11,456 nt of DNA from a virus (IMGVR_UViG_2648501669_000018:1-11456), one strand, 5' to 3'; shown: positions 1 to 6,283, counted from the first letter of the stretch. Notes: generated by a model not told the origin, from the letters alone. Made by a program: numbers and translations.

Positions 1-34
1 AAATATAGGGGCAAATCCAGAAAGTTCACCAGCC

Positions 35-77
35 AACCGCAGCACGTTCTTGCATACGACGTGCTGCGGTTTTCTTT
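35..77 (+). terminator. Rho-independent terminator (perfect 11-bp stem + T-run) ending an upstream plus-strand transcript
   Basis: Stem 37-47 ccgcagcacgt pairs perfectly with 59-69 acgtgctgcgg (11-nt loop), followed directly by ttttcttt at 70-77. A degenerate copy of the same ~40-bp module sits exactly 2700 bp downstream at 2731-2770. Confidence 0.6.
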
Positions 78-228
78 ATGATTTATGCACAATGGACAAT
101 TTGAAATTATTGATGATTGTATGGTGCATCGTTTTCTGAACCTACACTGATTTTTTGGTATAGCCTTGCCTAGCCAGTCTTACCGGATCAAACTCTTCGC
201 TATTGCAATACTAACCAAAATCATCAAT

Positions 229-257
229 TTGACAGCGATTAACCAGAATAATAGTAT
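229..257 (+). promoter_or_regulatory. Candidate sigma70 promoter for the diguanylate cyclase gene
   Basis: TTGACA at 229-234 (consensus -35), 17-bp spacer, TAGTAT at 252-257 (-10-like), in an AT-rich leader about 70 bp upstream of the ATG at 330. Motif match only. Confidence 0.3.
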
Positions 258-329
258 ACTATCACCAGTAAGAAATTATCGTTATTTGTAGCGATACATA
301 TTATATATATATCATTCTCAGGTGCGTAC

Positions 330-1661
330 ATGATTATCAAGCAGGTACCTATAAAAATAAAAATCTTCATCTTTTTATTTTCATGCATCTCTATTATATT
401 TTTGTTACTGCATGAAAATAATGGAATATACATAACACAAACAACACAAATAAGTTATAGTGTTTTCATTATTGGGCTTTTTTTCATAAACCTGATGATT
501 TTTATTTTTCTATTGCTTTACTATGTTTCTAATCAGAGACAAAGTTATCTCTTAATTCTTTCATTCGCGTTTTTGAGCAACACGTATTATTTATTAGAAG
601 TGGCTATTATTTCTTTATCTCCGTTAGGTAACGATTTATCTACAATCTATCAGAAATCAAATGATATCGCAATATATTATCTATTCCGTCAGTTCAGCTT
701 TATATCTATAATCTTTCTGGCTGTTTATTCCACCAATGTTAAAAATAAAAGTGTTTTAGAAGATAAAAGAAACATAATAATTGTTGTTTTGTCAATATTA
801 ATTCTTTTTATTACTCCGTTTGTAGCAAAAAATCTAAGCAGTGACAATATAAAATATAGTCTTAATATTATACAATACTCGCTGAATCGTCATTTGTCGA
901 CGTGGAATATCGTGTACACCAAAATAATATCAGTATTTTGGCTTGTATTACTTATCAGCTCATGCATCAGCATACGTAATTACTCAAAAATATGGTTGTG
1001 TATAATACTTATTAGTATAGTGTCAGTATGCAATAATCTAATTTTATTGTATTTTATTGATAAATCCCATCCTGCATGGTACATGACAAAATTTCTTGAA
1101 TTGATATCAATGATTTATATCATTTCAACACTCATGTATTATGTTTTCAGGAAATTAAATCATGCTAATCATATGGCAATTCATGATCCACTAACGAATA
1201 CATACAATAGAAGATACTTTATTGACTCATTGAAGAATATATCAAAACACCATGATTTCTCAGTAATAATGTTAGATATTGACAATTTCAAAAGCATCAA
1301 TGACAAATGGGGGCATCATATGGGTGATCAAGTCATAGTAATGGTTACCAGAATAATAAAAAAATCCATCAGGAAAGAGGATATATTAGGGCGCTTAGGC
1401 GGTGAGGAGTTCGGTATTATCATTAAAGGTAATACTCAAAAGCTCTTGCTATCAATTGCAGAGCGAATCAGAAAAAACATTGAAGAGCAATGCTCGGAAA
1501 AATTATTATCGCATGGACCTGAGAAAATAACTGTCAGTATTGGTTGCTTTACTTCAAAAGAGAATAATCTCAGTCCATCTGAAATGTTAGTCAATGCCGA
1601 TAAAGCGTTATATCAAGCCAAAAGAACCGGAAAAAACAAGGTGATAACTCACTCAAAATAA
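330..1661 (+). CDS. Membrane-anchored GGDEF-domain diguanylate cyclase (c-di-GMP synthase); possibly the prophage-associated dgcX
   Basis: 443-aa ORF with SD-like AGGTG at 319-323, 6 nt before the ATG. N-terminal ~270 aa is very hydrophobic with multiple predicted TM helices. C-terminus is a canonical GGDEF domain: DPLTNTYNRRYF, MLDIDNFKSINDKWGHHMGD (Asp at the base-specifying position, so GTP/c-di-GMP type), active site GGEEF, and an RxxD I-site (RKED) 5 residues upstream of GGEEF. The gene is strikingly AT-rich compared with the flanking tail genes, indicating foreign origin. Confidence 0.9.
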   Translation: MIIKQVPIKIKIFIFLFSCISIIFLLLHENNGIYITQTTQISYSVFIIGLFFINLMIFIFLLLYYVSNQRQSYLLILSFAFLSNTYYLLEVAIISLSPLGNDLSTIYQKSNDIAIYYLFRQFSFISIIFLAVYSTNVKNKSVLEDKRNIIIVVLSILILFITPFVAKNLSSDNIKYSLNIIQYSLNRHLSTWNIVYTKIISVFWLVLLISSCISIRNYSKIWLCIILISIVSVCNNLILLYFIDKSHPAWYMTKFLELISMIYIISTLMYYVFRKLNHANHMAIHDPLTNTYNRRYFIDSLKNISKHHDFSVIMLDIDNFKSINDKWGHHMGDQVIVMVTRIIKKSIRKEDILGRLGGEEFGIIIKGNTQKLLLSIAERIRKNIEEQCSEKLLSHGPEKITVSIGCFTSKENNLSPSEMLVNADKALYQAKRTGKNKVITHSK

Positions 1662-1690
1662 ACACCTTTTTAAAATACAGCCCCAATAAA

Positions 1691-1723
1691 CTGCAGAATA
1701 TTATCCCATATAATATCCTGCAG
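1691..1723. terminator. Imperfect inverted repeat between convergent genes; possible weak bidirectional terminator
   Basis: ctgcagaatatta (1691-1703) and taatatcctgcag (1711-1723) form a 13-bp stem with one mismatch. It lies between the cyclase stop (1661) and the tfa-relic stop (1735). On the minus strand it is followed by TTTATT. The stem is AT-rich and so of low stability. Confidence 0.25.
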
Positions 1724-1734
1724 TTCGTAATGCA

Positions 1735-2004
1735 CTATTCGATAATGGGTCCTGTTGGCCATTCAATATCCGGTGCAGTTGTTGTATTAACACGGTTCAG
1801 CAACACCCGATACTTCTTCCAGGCTTCCAGCAACGAGTTTTCTTCCTCCGTTGCGATCTCCAGATCTACAGCATCCTGAAGTGGCGCAATATGCTCACTG
1901 AATTCCTGGATGTAGAACTATGTGGTGACGGTCTTCCAGCCATTCGGCTCCTGCTGTATCGAAGCATACCAGGCTATTTCAATATCGCTATGCTGCGGCA
2001 GCAT
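1735..2004 (-). pseudogene. tfa: Tail fibre assembly (tfa) gene remnant, 3' portion with in-frame TAG
   Basis: Minus-strand translation gives ...[54 protein letters not shown], matching the C-terminus of lambda-type Tfa as I recall it. The 60-codon block (1738-1917) has no start codon and is preceded by an in-frame TAG (1918-1920). A short ATG-initiated stretch (from 2004) upstream is in the same frame. It is about 90% identical at nucleotide level to the second copy at 2806-2915. Confidence 0.7.
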
Positions 2005-2012
2005 TTAACCCC

Positions 2013-2041
2013 TTGTAATTCATCACCATAATTGATTTAAT
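2013..2041 (+). promoter_or_regulatory. Candidate sigma70 promoter (extended -10) for the methyltransferase gene
   Basis: TTGTAA at 2013-2018, 17-bp spacer, TGaTTTAAT at 2033-2041 (TGn extended -10 plus TTTAAT). The ATG at 2061 lacks a clear Shine-Dalgarno, so the transcript may have a very short leader. Confidence 0.25.
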
Positions 2042-2060
2042 TCACAAACAAAACTATAAC

Positions 2061-2729
2061 ATGGTGAAATTAATGAAAAAAAACACAGATGATGGGGCTA
2101 AAATTTACACACCACTTACCCTAAAGCTTTATGACTGGTGGGTTTTGGGAGTATCAAATCGGCTTGCATGGGGATGTCCTACAAAGGAACACCTTCTTCC
2201 ACACTTTCTGGAACATTTAGGTAACAACCATCTGGATATTGGTGTTGGAACTGGGTTTTACCTTACTCACGTACCTGAGAGTAGTCTGATATCTTTAATG
2301 GATTTGAACGAAGCTAGCCTGAACGCGGCATCTACAAGGGCTGGGGAATCAAAAATTAAACATAAAATTAGCCATGATGTTTTTGAACCTTATCCCGCGG
2401 CGTTACATGGTCAATTTGATTCCATTTCCATGTTTTACCTTCTTCACTGCCTGCCTGGAAATATATCTACAAAAAGCTGTGTAATACGCAATGCGGCGCA
2501 GGCCTTAACTGACGATGGAACTCTATACGGAGCCACAATTCTTGGCGATGGAGTTGTGCACAATAGCTTCGGTCAAAAACTGATGCGCATTTACAATCAG
2601 AAAGGCATCTTTTCAAACACAAAAGATTCCGAAGAAGGCTTAACACATATACTCTCAGAGCATTTCGAGAATGTTAAAACCAAGGTTCAAGGTACTGTAG
2701 TAATGTTTTCCGCTTCAGGGAAAAAATAG
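2061..2729 (+). CDS. Putative class I SAM-dependent methyltransferase (cargo gene, substrate unknown)
   Basis: 222-aa ORF. Motif I-like glycine-rich loop LDIGVGTGFY, followed by an acidic motif (ISLMDLNE) and a hydrophobic FDSISMFYLLHCLPG stretch, consistent with a Rossmann-fold methyltransferase. No convincing SD; an alternative start is the ATG at 2073 (MKKNTDD). Intermediate AT content and orientation opposite to the tail genes. Confidence 0.5.
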   Translation: MVKLMKKNTDDGAKIYTPLTLKLYDWWVLGVSNRLAWGCPTKEHLLPHFLEHLGNNHLDIGVGTGFYLTHVPESSLISLMDLNEASLNAASTRAGESKIKHKISHDVFEPYPAALHGQFDSISMFYLLHCLPGNISTKSCVIRNAAQALTDDGTLYGATILGDGVVHNSFGQKLMRIYNQKGIFSNTKDSEEGLTHILSEHFENVKTKVQGTVVMFSASGKK

Positions 2730-2730
2730 C

Positions 2731-2770
2731 ATCCAACCGCAGCTCGCTCTTGCTTAAGACGTGCTGCGGC
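2731..2770 (+). repeat. Degenerate second copy of the terminator hairpin module seen at 31-70
   Basis: atccaaccgcagctcgctcttgcttaagacgtgctgcggc aligns base-for-base with 31-70. The stem is reduced to 7 bp plus 2 and the T-run is replaced by cataatcc. It starts 2 nt after the methyltransferase stop. Confidence 0.6.
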
Positions 2771-2783
2771 ATAATCCCAATGA

Positions 2784-2966
2784 TTACTCCCTGACAGGGT
2801 TCGTAGGCCACTCAATATCAGGTGCAGTTGATGTATCAACACGGTTCAGCAACACCCGATACTTCTTCCAGACTTCCAGCAACAAGGTTTCTTCCTCCGT
2901 TGCGATTTCCAGCTCAACAACAGTCTGAACGTACCAGGAACAGCCTCCTTCAGGGCTTGAAGGATA
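2784..2966 (-). pseudogene. tfa: Tail fibre assembly (tfa) remnant (C-terminal 60 codons, no start codon)
   Basis: Minus-strand translation, immediately after and in frame with the stf TGA: [60 protein letters not shown]. No ATG/GTG/TTG start. An orphan strong SD (GAAGGAGG, minus strand, about 2941-2948) is followed by no start codon, consistent with a destroyed tfa initiation region. Confidence 0.7.
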
Positions 2967-5900
2967 TCAATGTTCGCTTCCTGTTAACTGCCCGACAAGT
3001 GCAACCAGTTCGCTTACCTGATTTTCCAGAGTGGTGATCCGGGTGCCTGCTGTTGCCAGATTTTCACGTAACGTTGTATTTTCCTCTTCCAGCGCGGTAA
3101 CGCGATCATCTGTTTCACGGGCGACCTGAACAAGTAACCCCGTCACGGCGGAGTAGTCAACATTAAGATAGCGAGTTTCTTCGCGTAGCTCGTTGCCGTC
3201 AACGGTCGGACCTTGCAACTCTTCACCATAATGAGTAAACGATCCCACAGCTTCAGGTATCGCCTCCATTACTTCCTGTGCAATAACGCCAGCATAAGGC
3301 ATTCCGTTTTCCTTGAGCGTGTAGGTGTACCCGTTCATTTTACGGATTGCTTTCGTAGCGTCGCTGATAACGCGAATATCGTCTTTAAGGTCGCGGTCTG
3401 ATGACTGATTCAGCGTTGTGCAATTAATAGCGCCATTTACATCAAACAACTGGCCTGCTGATGTTTTTTGCGCATAAAACAGATACGCAGCAGACGTTCC
3501 AACCTCAAAAACGTTTTGTCGATCACTTGATCCCCATACTTTTGCGGCAAATGATAGTTCTGTATTACCTAAGTTCTGTAAAACAAAACGATTTCCAGTC
3601 CCTGTTTGTTTTGTAAGAGTTAAATCAACAGTTGAGTTAACCTCATCCTTGTTGATAGTGAGCGCCTGTGCTTTAGCCCCGTTAACAGCACCTGTTTTGA
3701 GTTGAACCGCGCCGTCATTACCATTTAACAGTATCTCAGCTCCGCTAAAGAAATTTTTTAGCGACAGCATCTTACTTACGCCGACTGATGAACCCAACGC
3801 CCACGCGAGAGAATTACCGGTGCTATCAAACCCACGTACAAAGCAATCCATTTTGCTATAGTCTGACGTGCTTCCAAGGACATCAATTCGCCCTCCGCCA
3901 GATTTTACCGGGTTAGATGTGGTTAATGACCTGACAGCAAGATCGGTAGATGAATTGAGATCGTCTACTGTTAGTAATTTCTTCCATTCCTGCGTCGTTC
4001 CATTTTCAATTGTTCTTCCCCAAAAACCGGAATTGCGGCCTCCGAACTGCACAGCATAATTTTTACTAAATTGAACATGAATGCCGCCAAGAACCATAGA
4101 ACCTGCCGGGCCGTTTGTACTGCCTGCAATTGGTATAAATTTATTAATGTTATCAGTATGCTGCGTGTTCCAGTCTCGTCCTGTTTTTGTAAGCAGTCCT
4201 AATGTCGTGTCGAGCGCTTCGGTTAAAGTAAGGTTTTTAAATTTAACTGCGCTACTTTCGCCAAGACTTAAGTTGTTTCGCGCATCTTCTACTGTTGTCG
4301 CACCTGTACCTCCTTGCCCAACAGCTAATGGCAACCAGCCAGTGCCATTATGACAACCCCACAAACCAGATTTGGAAACCTGTAAGCGTGGTGCGCCTGA
4401 AGAATACGTAGAATATACGTAAGTTGTTTCTTTTCCCTCTTCAACCCTTTCTGTTGATACATCTCTCTTCCATTCAGACCAGGTACCGCTTCCTCCTTCA
4501 TATATTCGTCTATAAGTAATTCCCGGATTATTATAAGGGTAGTACACCTGAACGCAGGAAGAAGCAGTGTTGGCTCTCGTTTGGAGCACTATTAAAGCGC
4601 CCGCCAGACCGATTGGGTAATTTAATTCTTCTGTTGCGTAAGCGCTCGTTGGTTGTTGATAGAAACCAGAATATTCACCGGTAAGGGTGTTTAGGTCAGT
4701 ATTAGCAAGGCCAGCTTTTTGCTCATACATTACCCGCAAGTTCGCACGTGCTTGCTCGATAGTTCTTCCACCAGTACCGCCCTGGGCTAAACCTAACGGA
4801 GACCATTGTCCAGAAGAAGAATCATAAACTCCCCAACTCCCGTTAGTATGGATTTCAAAGAAACGATCACCAGTTGGACCATACATACGAGTTGTTGATT
4901 CATTTTGACCAAAGCGGCTTAATTCATCTCTGCGGGTATGACGTATCCATTGCGGGCCAGAACTTTGGCTGTAAATGTACGAATACAATGATTTTGTATC
5001 TGAACCAACAAATAGACCGGAATATCTTTTTGTTGACACTTCTGATCTAACTATATAACCAGAAATAAGATTATCACCGGCACTAGACGCTACTGATGGA
5101 TAACCTTTCGCTGAGATGTAAATCCTGACAAATCCAATATAACCTGATGGCTCAACAGAGATATCAGTGCAGGTCATGGCAACTTCACCAAGACCGATAT
5201 TATCGCCAACAATTACTTGCGCCTGGTTGCGATAATTAAGTGCGTCCGCCGCAGATTTCGCCGCGTTTGTTTCACTGGATTTAGCATTAGTTTCGCTGGC
5301 TTTAGCGTTGGTTTCGCTGCTCTTTGCTGCTGCCTCGCTATTTTTCGCGTTGGTTTCTGATTTTTTGGCTGCTGTCGCGGAGTTTGCCGATGCAGTTTGT
5401 GAGTCTGCTGCCGCCTGTGCGCTGTTATCCGCATTCGTCTCAGACGTTTTTGCGGCCTTCGCGGAATTTCCTGCCGCCGTTGCCGAGGAAGCTGCACTAC
5501 TGGCACTTGATGATGCGTTCGTTTCTGATGATTTCGCTGCCTCTTTTGAGGCCGCCGCATCCCGGGCTGAGGTGGCAGCTTCTGACGCTTTCGTGGTCGC
5601 GGTGGATGCAGAAGTGGCTGCTGATTGTTGTGATGCTGCGGCATTCGTTTCTGACGTTTTCGCCGCACCGGCACTGGTGGCTGCCGCGCTTTTTGAGGAC
5701 TCTGCAGCGGCAGCACTTTTTGATGCTTCAGTAGCCTTTGTTGATGCCGTTCCTGCGCTGGAAGACGCTGACTGAGCCGACGTCGCGGCCTGCCCGGCTG
5801 ATGTGCTGGCTGCACGTGCTGAGCCTGTAGCATCAGTCGCATGGGTTGCCGCCTCACGGGCTGATGTGCTGGCATCGCTGGCTGACTTCTTCGCGGCTGC

Positions 5901-6272
5901 CGTGTTCTGTGCCACTGCGGACGCGTTACGCGCCACCTCTTCCACCATCAGTTCAAAGCGGCGCAGTGCCTCCGGACGGGCATCATCCTCCGTCATGGCA
6001 CCGAGAAAATCATTCAGCGTACCCGGTTGTGAGTCTTCATACACGGTGATGGTCCCGGCATGCGATGGCGGGAAGCCTTCCACCAACAGAATAACGCTGT
6101 ACTGACCGTACTCAACATCCATGCTGTAACGCCCGGCTTCATCCGGATTTTCAGATGCCACCGTGTTCACCACCACCGTGGTGCTGTTACGTTTTGCTTT
6201 CAGCTGGATTGTGCAGTTCTGTACCGGTTTACCTGCACCGTCTTTCAGTACACCTGAAATCTTTACTGCCAT
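2967..6272 (-). CDS. stf: Side tail fibre protein (lambda Stf-like N-terminus; C-terminal intramolecular chaperone domain)
   Basis: The N-terminus MAVKISGVLKDGAGKPVQNCTIQLKAKRNSTTVVVNTVASENPDEAGRYSMDVEYGQYSV... closely matches lambda Stf as I recall it. The ORF track starts at a GTG (6278); the ATG at 6272 (MAVKIS) is the likelier start. It contains a long Ala/Ser/Thr-rich repeat region, two GQGGTG fibre-repeat motifs and a C-terminal S74-type chaperone domain. Stop TGA at 2967-2969. Confidence 0.9.
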   Translation of the reverse strand: MAVKISGVLKDGAGKPVQNCTIQLKAKRNSTTVVVNTVASENPDEAGRYSMDVEYGQYSVILLVEGFPPSHAGTITVYEDSQPGTLNDFLGAMTEDDARPEALRRFELMVEEVARNASAVAQNTAAAKKSASDASTSAREAATHATDATGSARAASTSAGQAATSAQSASSSAGTASTKATEASKSAAAAESSKSAAATSAGAAKTSETNAAASQQSAATSASTATTKASEAATSARDAAASKEAAKSSETNASSSASSAASSATAAGNSAKAAKTSETNADNSAQAAADSQTASANSATAAKKSETNAKNSEAAAKSSETNAKASETNAKSSETNAAKSAADALNYRNQAQVIVGDNIGLGEVAMTCTDISVEPSGYIGFVRIYISAKGYPSVASSAGDNLISGYIVRSEVSTKRYSGLFVGSDTKSLYSYIYSQSSGPQWIRHTRRDELSRFGQNESTTRMYGPTGDRFFEIHTNGSWGVYDSSSGQWSPLGLAQGGTGGRTIEQARANLRVMYEQKAGLANTDLNTLTGEYSGFYQQPTSAYATEELNYPIGLAGALIVLQTRANTASSCVQVYYPYNNPGITYRRIYEGGSGTWSEWKRDVSTERVEEGKETTYVYSTYSSGAPRLQVSKSGLWGCHNGTGWLPLAVGQGGTGATTVEDARNNLSLGESSAVKFKNLTLTEALDTTLGLLTKTGRDWNTQHTDNINKFIPIAGSTNGPAGSMVLGGIHVQFSKNYAVQFGGRNSGFWGRTIENGTTQEWKKLLTVDDLNSSTDLAVRSLTTSNPVKSGGGRIDVLGSTSDYSKMDCFVRGFDSTGNSLAWALGSSVGVSKMLSLKNFFSGAEILLNGNDGAVQLKTGAVNGAKAQALTINKDEVNSTVDLTLTKQTGTGNRFVLQNLGNTELSFAAKVWGSSDRQNVFEVGTSAAYLFYAQKTSAGQLFDVNGAINCTTLNQSSDRDLKDDIRVISDATKAIRKMNGYTYTLKENGMPYAGVIAQEVMEAIPEAVGSFTHYGEELQGPTVDGNELREETRYLNVDYSAVTGLLVQVARETDDRVTALEEENTTLRENLATAGTRITTLENQVSELVALVGQLTGSEH
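2970..3401 (-). other. C-terminal intramolecular chaperone / auto-processing domain (peptidase S74-like) of the tail fibre
   Basis: Last ~144 aa: SDRDLKDDIRVISDATKAIRKMNGYTYTLKENG...GVIAQEVMEAIPEAV...coiled-coil tail. This matches the hallmark S-D-x-x-L-K cleavage motif and the GYxY / IAQE core of chaperone domains in endosialidase and T5 L-shaped fibre proteins (recalled from family knowledge). Confidence 0.7.
5216..5906 (-). repeat. Low-complexity Ala/Ser/Thr-rich repeat region inside stf (K-S/T-SETNA-type repeats)
   Basis: Protein segment of about residues 125-355 is almost entirely A/S/T/K/E with reiterated ...KSSETNA... units. The DNA shows reiterated gcgttggtttcgct-like units. This compositional bias creates several spurious overlapping ORFs on both strands. 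Confidence 0.75.
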
Positions 6273-6283
6273 ATTCACCCCAC

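Follow-up and report, generated by a model that had tools for sequence, protein, structure and literature searches.

A likely cargo slot of a lambda-like prophage in which dgcX and a methyltransferase gene appear to have been joined by one exchange within tfa

Lambdoid morons and mosaic joints, exchangeable effector loci downstream of the tail fibre genes of O157, and relaxed Rad52-type recombination are reportedly the subjects of work by Juhala and Hendrix in 2000, Tobe in 2006 and De Paepe in 2014. We analysed a stretch of viral DNA of 11,456 nucleotides (nt) (IMGVR_UViG_2648501669_000018:1-11456, hereafter the window); it represents the right end of a prophage of lambda type, inserted at att-lambda. 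The window begins with the end of an IS2 element, followed by a non-coding module closing in a hairpin (hairpin 1), the diguanylate cyclase gene dgcX, a first relic of the 3' end of tfa (relic A), a ybcY-like methyltransferase gene, a second hairpin (hairpin 2), a second tfa relic (relic B), a side tail fibre gene with an S74 domain, lom and J. We consider it likely that this region is the cargo, or moron, slot of the prophage and that dgcX and the methyltransferase gene were brought together by a single homologous exchange within tfa. As in the lambdoid morons, AT-rich cargo with promoter- and terminator-like signals of its own lies between the tail-fibre genes and att, its presence varies among similar phages, and short conserved sequences are where the joints occur. 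Nothing here differs from them in kind: the region is an ordinary, well-documented type of phage mosaicism, the genes dgcX and ybcY/tfaX/tfaD are already known, and the understanding of phage mosaicism is unchanged by these findings. The addition is a modest one, namely the exact frame in which Escherichia coli lambda-like accessory genes sit, with the module and its hairpin on one side and the 3' end of tfa on the other, together with an empty site and one mapped crossover.

The cyclase gene has been reported at two chromosomal sites, att-lambda and argW-dsdC, always with lambdoid prophage DNA adjoining (Richter et al. 2014, PMC4287979; Cimdins-Ahne et al. 2023, PMC10459773). By sequence comparison, the window cyclase corresponds to this published DgcX. 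The window is 99% identical at the DNA level to the ST866 locus, in which the 3' end of dgcX plus tfa (801 nt) is identical to E24377A, a strain listed with dgcX at attB (PMC4287979), and the predicted protein matches the Pfam families MASE4 (1.8e-35) and GGDEF (9.5e-45). A 90%-identical copy lies near dsdC, at the second reported site (PMC10459773), and in all dgcX is found in the same module/tfa frame at two chromosomal sites besides att-lambda. In the published accounts dgcX stands beside the prophage, and hitchhiking by specialised transduction was suggested; here, by contrast, it lies on the phage side of the att core. This can be followed in strain MB53, whose complete genome is the most similar one at this end (window positions 20-3100 are matched at 99.7%), where bioA and ybhB are followed by the lambda att core GCTTTTTTATACTAA (locus L001, 8656-8670), by 272 nt homologous to lambda 27471-27742, by the module with its hairpin and by dgcX, with J-lom-stf on the other side of the cargo. 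The 272-nt stretch corresponds to the lambda P arm and also, in a placement of our own, to sib. Because the att core and the lambda-homologous stretch precede the module and dgcX, the biofilm-related cyclase gene is placed inside the prophage, as cargo of the b region, which refines the earlier idea of hitchhiking beside it.

The b region of lambda itself (tfa - hairpin - ea47 - hairpin/module - ea31 - ea59 - sib - attP) has both hairpins with the same outer arms. One belongs to a module copy at 24162-24265, whose left arm is that of window hairpin 1; the other lies directly after tfa, just downstream of its stop codon (~22,570-22,610), and has the right arm of window hairpin 2. Together they bracket ea47, which converges on tfa as the cargo does in the window. 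Over the tfa side, window 2735-2929 aligns with lambda 22412-22608 at 84% over 198 alignment columns, with the lambda tfa stop at 22557. The two regions differ in that the lambda cargo is ea47, that ea31 and ea59 are further inserted between module and sib, and that the lambda tfa is intact. Hairpin 2, which the sequence-only reading of the window had taken for a degenerate duplicate of hairpin 1, is instead the native hairpin just downstream of tfa, and occurs as such in lambda.

The module is a non-coding block of about 100-180 nt that ends in hairpin 1. It is contiguous with the lambda-type attP/sib in MB53 and in HK106 (411 nt, 93%), and it is present in 213 phage records and in 5415 of 5426 E. 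coli genomes, at 22,207 places in all and a median of four per genome. The query for the site without cargo was a chimera that ran from the left arm of hairpin 1 through the hairpin into the right arm of hairpin 2 and tfa. In 492 genomes it was matched at one place over 80% or more of its length, and every listed match was a single piece, at 89-98% identity. In these cargo-free relatives the module, one hairpin and 14 nt lead directly to the tfa stop codon. VR50 provides an example at att-lambda itself, in the order ybhB, att, module, one hairpin, 'cataatcccaatga' and tfa stop, and its right arm is the same as that of window hairpin 2. HK106 has its tfa, which ends in another 3' type, 124 nt past the module, and the annotation shows no cargo gene in the interval. 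A second pair of empty and occupied sites is found beside sitD, where locus L068 is empty and locus L020 holds dgcX. The region of the window thus shows two features of a moron: it is located within the prophage, with the late (tail fibre) genes on one side and the att end on the other, and its site is empty in related prophages. In both L020 and L068, the module and hairpin of the prophage end directly adjoin the end of sitABCD, an iron/manganese transporter operon.

Other genomes hold other genes in the slot. Roughly 700 prophage ends carry the joint of hairpin and dgcX. The full window type, with dgcX and the methyltransferase gene, occurs in 190 genomes, and MB53 and E. coli 042 are strains that have it; in Qin-type prophages ynfT-ydfK-pinQ occupy the slot, and in O157 four stress genes stand between the hairpin and tfa. 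In the last arrangement, seen in O157:H7 MB41-1 (L008, 4950-7781), the hairpin of the methyltransferase module and an intact tfa enclose genes for a manganese catalase, a general stress protein and two ferritin-like proteins; cargo has here a second point of insertion, between the hairpin and tfa. Across the loci compared, no fewer than five different sequences adjoin the hairpin on its right and three on its left, and homology stops at the base of the stem each time. Both the hairpins and the tfa-derived repeats fall exactly on module joints: matches between the window and other genomes have end-points that cluster at 20-30, 69-73, 1747-1790, 1880-1911, 2769-2775 and 2878-2929.

Self-comparison of the window recovered both repeat pairs, neither of them shorter than they had been noted from the sequence alone. 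The tfa-derived direct repeats flanking the methyltransferase gene, first placed at 1757-1866 and 2806-2915 with an identity of about 90%, are slightly longer, at 127 nt with 113 identical positions (89%); their starts lie 1049 nt apart, and the longest stretch without a mismatch is 34 nt. The assignment of both to 3' ends of tfa on the minus strand is borne out by Pfam, which matches the C-terminal part of Caudo_TAP in relic A (positions 76-130 of 131, E 2.4e-24) and in relic B (positions 90-130 of 131, E 5.3e-19). The pair of hairpins of about 40 bp around the cyclase and methyltransferase genes is likewise as it had been described, with 35 of 40 positions identical and a spacing of exactly 2700. 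BLAST gives E values of 3e-43 for the tfa pair and 6e-8 for the hairpin pair, both far beyond chance. Since window 70-2736 formally amounts, relative to the empty site, to an insertion flanked by a duplicated 40-nt hairpin, the spacing is that of the inserted block plus one hairpin, and the round figure carries no meaning. The coordinates of these and the neighbouring features are given in Table 1.

Table 1. Features of the cargo region and its surroundings, in window coordinates.
Feature	Position	Strand	Basis or remark
IS2 right end, last 19 nt	1-19	+	outside the prophage backbone
Lambdoid non-coding module, 3' part including hairpin 1	20-86	+	homology block 30-69; stem 35-48/58-71; T-tail 70-77
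Promoter-like site upstream of dgcX	229-257	+	TTGACA-17-TAGTAT, 10/12; consensus scan only
dgcX, MASE4 + GGDEF diguanylate cyclase	330-1661	+	Pfam; 29.6% GC
AT-rich 17-bp hairpin between convergent dgcX and relic A	1689-1726		fold
tfa relic A, 3' 177 nt	1735-1911	-	stop codon 1735-1737; holds repeat copy 1, 1754-1880
Spacer, 149 nt, travels with the methyltransferase module	1912-2060		read from sequence
Class I S-adenosylmethionine-dependent methyltransferase, YbcY type	2061-2729	+	Pfam, PHROG; 40.8% GC
Hairpin 2, native tfa-proximal hairpin	2730-2769		directly after the methyltransferase stop; 14 nt from the relic B stop
tfa relic B, 3' 146 nt	2784-2929	-	stop codon 2784-2786; holds repeat copy 2, 2803-2929
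Side tail fibre, lambda-type N-terminus + C-terminal S74 domain	2967-6278	-	Pfam

The evidence for an exchange within tfa comes from relic A, which is chimeric. Compared with the allele found where dgcX is followed by an intact tfa, relic A has 4 mismatches in 81 positions at 1780-1860 and 37 in 60 at 1901-1960; compared with the alleles of the methyltransferase module, it has 12-13 mismatches in the first interval and 1-2 in the second. It is thus of the dgcX-parent type up to about 1860 and of the methyltransferase-module type from about 1900. In the history that we propose, the slot would lie between the tail-fibre genes and the att/sib end, with two backbone landmarks, the module ending in a GC-rich hairpin and the conserved last ~130-155 nt of tfa. 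One parent would have been of the type module-hairpin-dgcX-tfa, and the other, a prophage or phage, of the type tfa'-ybcY-like methyltransferase-hairpin-tfa'-S74 fibre. A single crossover within the conserved 3' segment of tfa, at about 1861-1900, would have set dgcX beside the methyltransferase module, and the duplicated hairpin and the pair of direct tfa relics would be what remained of it. On this reading the repeats mark where modules were exchanged, as scars and anchor points, and are not functional genes. Homologies of such length and divergence can serve as substrates for RecA and, above all, for recombinases of the lambda Red type; we infer that RecA or a phage Red/Rad52-type enzyme was at work here, and the direction of the events is inferred in the same way.

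Both parent types are common among present-day genomes. Some considerations weigh against this history. The parents are deduced from such present-day genomes and were not observed, and the count of up to 319 genomes in which dgcX alone stands with an intact tfa, E24377A included, may take in some that have only tfa plus spacer. The order of events cannot be rooted, so that the window type could be the older one and the dgcX-plus-tfa and single-relic types derived from it. The junctions at the stem base could reflect selection for a terminator instead of recombination inside a 40-nt hairpin, and hairpin 2 and the empty-site hairpin, which have no T-run on the plus strand, are no more than candidate terminators. 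Finally, dgcX always occurs with the same left arm, so that it offers no case of a crossover inside hairpin 1.

The second parent is represented by a unit known from K-12. In the DLP12 prophage (tfaX-ybcY-tfaD), a tfa relic, the spacer, ybcY, the hairpin and a tfa fragment follow each other in the same order and orientation as in the window, at 96% identity to window 1758-2929. The K-12 copy differs in that its ybcY is frameshifted, that appY-ompT lies beyond tfaX where the window has dgcX, and that tfaD' is fused to a terminase remnant and not to an S74 fibre. The window methyltransferase matches the Pfam families Methyltransf_12/23/25/11 and, over its full length, phrog_2132 (7.9e-157), and its DNA is 96-97% identical to ybcY of DLP12 and to phage copies. 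Phage PhiR26_1 has the order J-lom-stf-tfa-ybcY-tfa'-hydrolase-ompT, and phages 2G7b and ev243 also carry the tfa'-methyltransferase-hairpin-tfa unit, the tail-fibre end being intact or differently arranged in the phage records. In about 18 of 30 evenly spaced rows sampled from 5,309 matching records, the methyltransferase gene is accompanied by at least one flanking tfa fragment. The tfa'-methyltransferase-hairpin-tfa unit is therefore an old and widespread pre-assembled module that is also present in active phages, and because it is widespread elsewhere, the pair of tfa repeats around the methyltransferase gene was not created at this locus. The combination of dgcX with tfa is a second module of this kind. 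The spacer has 1-2 mismatches in 49 nt with the K-12, O157 and PhiR26_1 modules. It holds the 5' part of a short Tfa-like open reading frame (ORF; ATG 2002-2004, in-frame TAG 1918-1920) and, from a consensus scan only, a promoter-like site at 2005-2032 that faces the methyltransferase gene. A 'DinI family' fragment annotated by PGAP at 1905-1985 was dropped, as it had no Pfam support in any frame tried.

These findings also bear on the serial insertion of dgcX and the methyltransferase gene at this place, through tfa and the hairpin, in an active cassette hotspot with ongoing precise loss of the methyltransferase gene. Relative to VR50, the window does have the form of an insertion between hairpin duplicates, the same pattern surrounds ea47 in lambda, and there are genomes that combine dgcX with a single tfa relic and the S74 fibre. 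We nevertheless consider this course unlikely: K-12, O157 and free phages have the methyltransferase gene with both of its tfa flanks already formed, the identity of the repeats is only 89% and none of their perfect runs exceeds 34 nt, and a search for the deletion joint returned undeleted loci as its 25 best matches. One exchange between pre-formed modules is the more parsimonious account, and the cargo was probably not inserted serially in situ. Of the earlier proposal that cargo was inserted serially by recombination in tfa and terminator sequences, the joints at tfa and at the hairpin are retained and the serial order, given the pre-assembled methyltransferase unit, is not.

Precise deletion of the methyltransferase gene by recombination between the repeats had also been predicted from the sequence. 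The structure that it would produce, dgcX with a single tfa relic and the S74 fibre at the spacings of the window, exists in nine genomes, and in EH08-18-36 the single relic is of A type up to 1858 and of B type from 1864. In the three of these nine that were examined, the 3' end of the fibre gene differs from the window by 5-13%, and two of the three carry a third tfa allele. Because their fibre and tfa alleles diverge, the examined genomes are not recent derivatives of the window type. With a synthetic 852-nt deletion joint as query against the 5,426 genomes, the best 25 matches were all two-piece and undeleted. The sequences thus give no evidence of recent or frequent deletion, and an independent exchange of the S74 module would explain the single-relic genomes equally well; the predicted product exists, and no recent instance of it was found.

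The hairpin module could alternatively be a present or former integrase att site, with the hairpins being attL/attR-like and the cargo arriving by site-specific insertion or aberrant excision. The GenBank record of HK633 labels the module attP, 'similar to non-coding region between genes ykgJ and yagV' (L065, 2018-2098), a copy lies at the ykgJ core-genome site in nearly every E. coli, the module is directly downstream of an integrase gene in HK633 and, next to intS, in locus L006, and cargo abuts the hairpin on either side. The hitchhiking of dgcX by specialised transduction proposed by Richter et al. (PMC4287979) would also fit. However, the HK633 label derives only from similarity; MB53 and HK106 have the module in one stretch with the lambda-type attP/sib, where the core used by the associated integrase is a different one; the K-12 'attB' has a tfa relic beside it and so looks like a prophage scar; no integrase is associated with the second hairpin; and the joint on the tfa side is clearly a homologous crossover. 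We therefore regard an att site as highly improbable. A related idea is that the ~40-nt hairpin with its ~100-nt module serves as a dedicated recombination joint common to many lambdoid phages, either a relic or secondary att site of an HK633/IntS-type integrase or a substrate preferred by phage recombinases of the single-strand-annealing kind. Were this so, cargo would be loaded cassette-like on either side of the hairpin, which would account for the varied flanks that break at the stem base; we think it quite unlikely. With integron cassettes and their attC hairpins, the region shares cargo genes bounded by imperfect hairpin repeats; it differs in that one border is a protein-coding tfa homology, where the joint arose by homologous crossover. 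The annotated stretches that were examined showed neither attI nor an integron integrase, and the MB53 stretch from ybhB to the tail genes has no annotated integrase. The integrases near the module, all in other genomes, are phage tyrosine integrases only.

The copy at ykgJ deserves a separate description. In the K-12-like locus L012 (2457-3156, ecpE-ykgJ-yagU), the core gene ykgJ is flanked by a module with its hairpin on one side and by a decayed, frameshifted tfa 3' relic on the other. The module and hairpin (2457-2565) are 87% identical to the ST866 copy over 109 nt, and occur in nearly all E. coli genomes. This suggests that ykgJ is the fixed cargo of an ancient prophage end, lying in a decayed copy of the same frame, a placement of this core gene that is new here.

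The tfa-derived repeats were also considered as copies of a small RNA gene, Rfam IS009 (RF02111), maintained for an RNA function. The region of relic A at 1778-1981 scores 129.9 bits, above the threshold of 117, and that of copy B at 2827-3027 scores 92.7 bits; the highest score found, 202 bits, belongs to the tfa relic that separates ykgJ from yagU in a K-12-like genome. Set against this, the conserved part encodes the C-terminus of Tfa, as strong scores in Pfam and PHROG show, other genomes have it as part of an intact tfa gene, the Rfam consensus is mostly unpaired, and the match of copy B, below threshold, extends into unrelated fibre sequence. We give an RNA function almost no credence. 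Because the sequence is protein-coding in intact tfa genes, we read IS009 as a 3' relic of tfa.

Neither relic is an intact gene: a functional tfa would be an ORF of about 190-200 codons directly downstream of stf, whereas relic A has 60 codons after an in-frame TAG and relic B is 146 nt without a start. The best PHROG match of relic A is phrog_2341. Relic A is the 3' part of the short Tfa-like ORF (1735-2004), which has an N-terminus of its own, MLPQHSDIEIAWY..., and is interrupted in the window by the TAG at 1918-1920; the PhiR26_1 equivalent is open, at 306 nt. Relic B is cut at 2929/2930, where the S74 fibre module starts, and the same joint of relic and S74 fibre is found in L004, L010, L018-L020, L068 and many more genomes. 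The side tail fibre matches Pfam phage_tail_N (3e-72) and Peptidase_S74 (1.7e-13). The intramolecular chaperone domain S74 should make Tfa dispensable; yet in many prophage contexts a tfa 3' relic of 120-146 nt is kept at the ends of S74 fibre genes. An origin of the tfa copies from an invertible fibre segment of the Pin/Gin type was rejected, as such segments carry inverted copies and the tfa copies are direct.

The hairpins are probably transcription stops that insulate the cargo genes, an activity suggested by their structure. The predicted fold of hairpin 1 is a stem of 14 bp with TTTTCTTT directly behind it (ΔG -24.9 kcal/mol, z -4.4), and a GC-rich stem with a U-run is apparent both by eye and by folding. 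Hairpin 2 has one mismatch within the stem, no T-run on the plus strand and a z of -2.6. A terminator scan reported none at the window hairpins, which we attribute to the 9-nt loop of the hairpin, beyond the limit of the scan. The AT-rich hairpin between dgcX and relic A (-29.5 kcal/mol on the minus strand, z -3.3) is predicted to be, probably, a two-way terminator of the dgcX cassette; it is also found in the genomes with dgcX and an intact tfa, whose match is continuous from 20 to 1911. A third hairpin 'copy' proposed by the repeat finder at 1684-1723 (60%) corresponds to this separate AT-rich hairpin and was set outside the hairpin-module family. Matches of the window hairpins to Rfam CssrB, at 44 and 24 bits for a threshold of 76, were treated as not meaningful, and CssrB was not found at the module copies in L012 (ecpE-ykgJ), L005 and L006. 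Short ORFs annotated in RefSeq as 'capsid protein' or 'nucleocapsid protein' over the hairpin module (window 30-69; L006 3997-4110, L007 4883-5020, L067 3544-3693) look spurious.

The cargo has a foreign base composition, with the GC contents of dgcX and the methyltransferase gene given in Table 1 standing against 55.9% for J. In a consensus scan, the number of promoter-like sites in the window was not above that expected from shuffling. PADLOC defence models returned nothing for DgcX, and for the methyltransferase a marginal match only (E 0.003).

At the left edge, all E. coli matches to the window begin at position 20. The 20-mer at the left end of the window is multi-copy in Shigella and E. 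coli genomes, and in locus L031 it closes an element with InsC/InsD-like ORFs, '...tctggaaatataggggcaaatcca', which we take to encode the IS2 proteins. The joint between IS2 and the module was present in none of the 5,426 complete E. coli genomes, and window 1-34 had no matches in the viral and species-representative genome collections. The IS2 copy of the source genome sits within the conserved module, 10 nt to the left of the hairpin homology block. At the other side of the region, the fibre gene contains between 5260 and 5890 several imperfect direct repeats of 21-41 nt (families D3, D4 and D16), which encode an Ala/Ser/Thr-rich stretch of the shaft.

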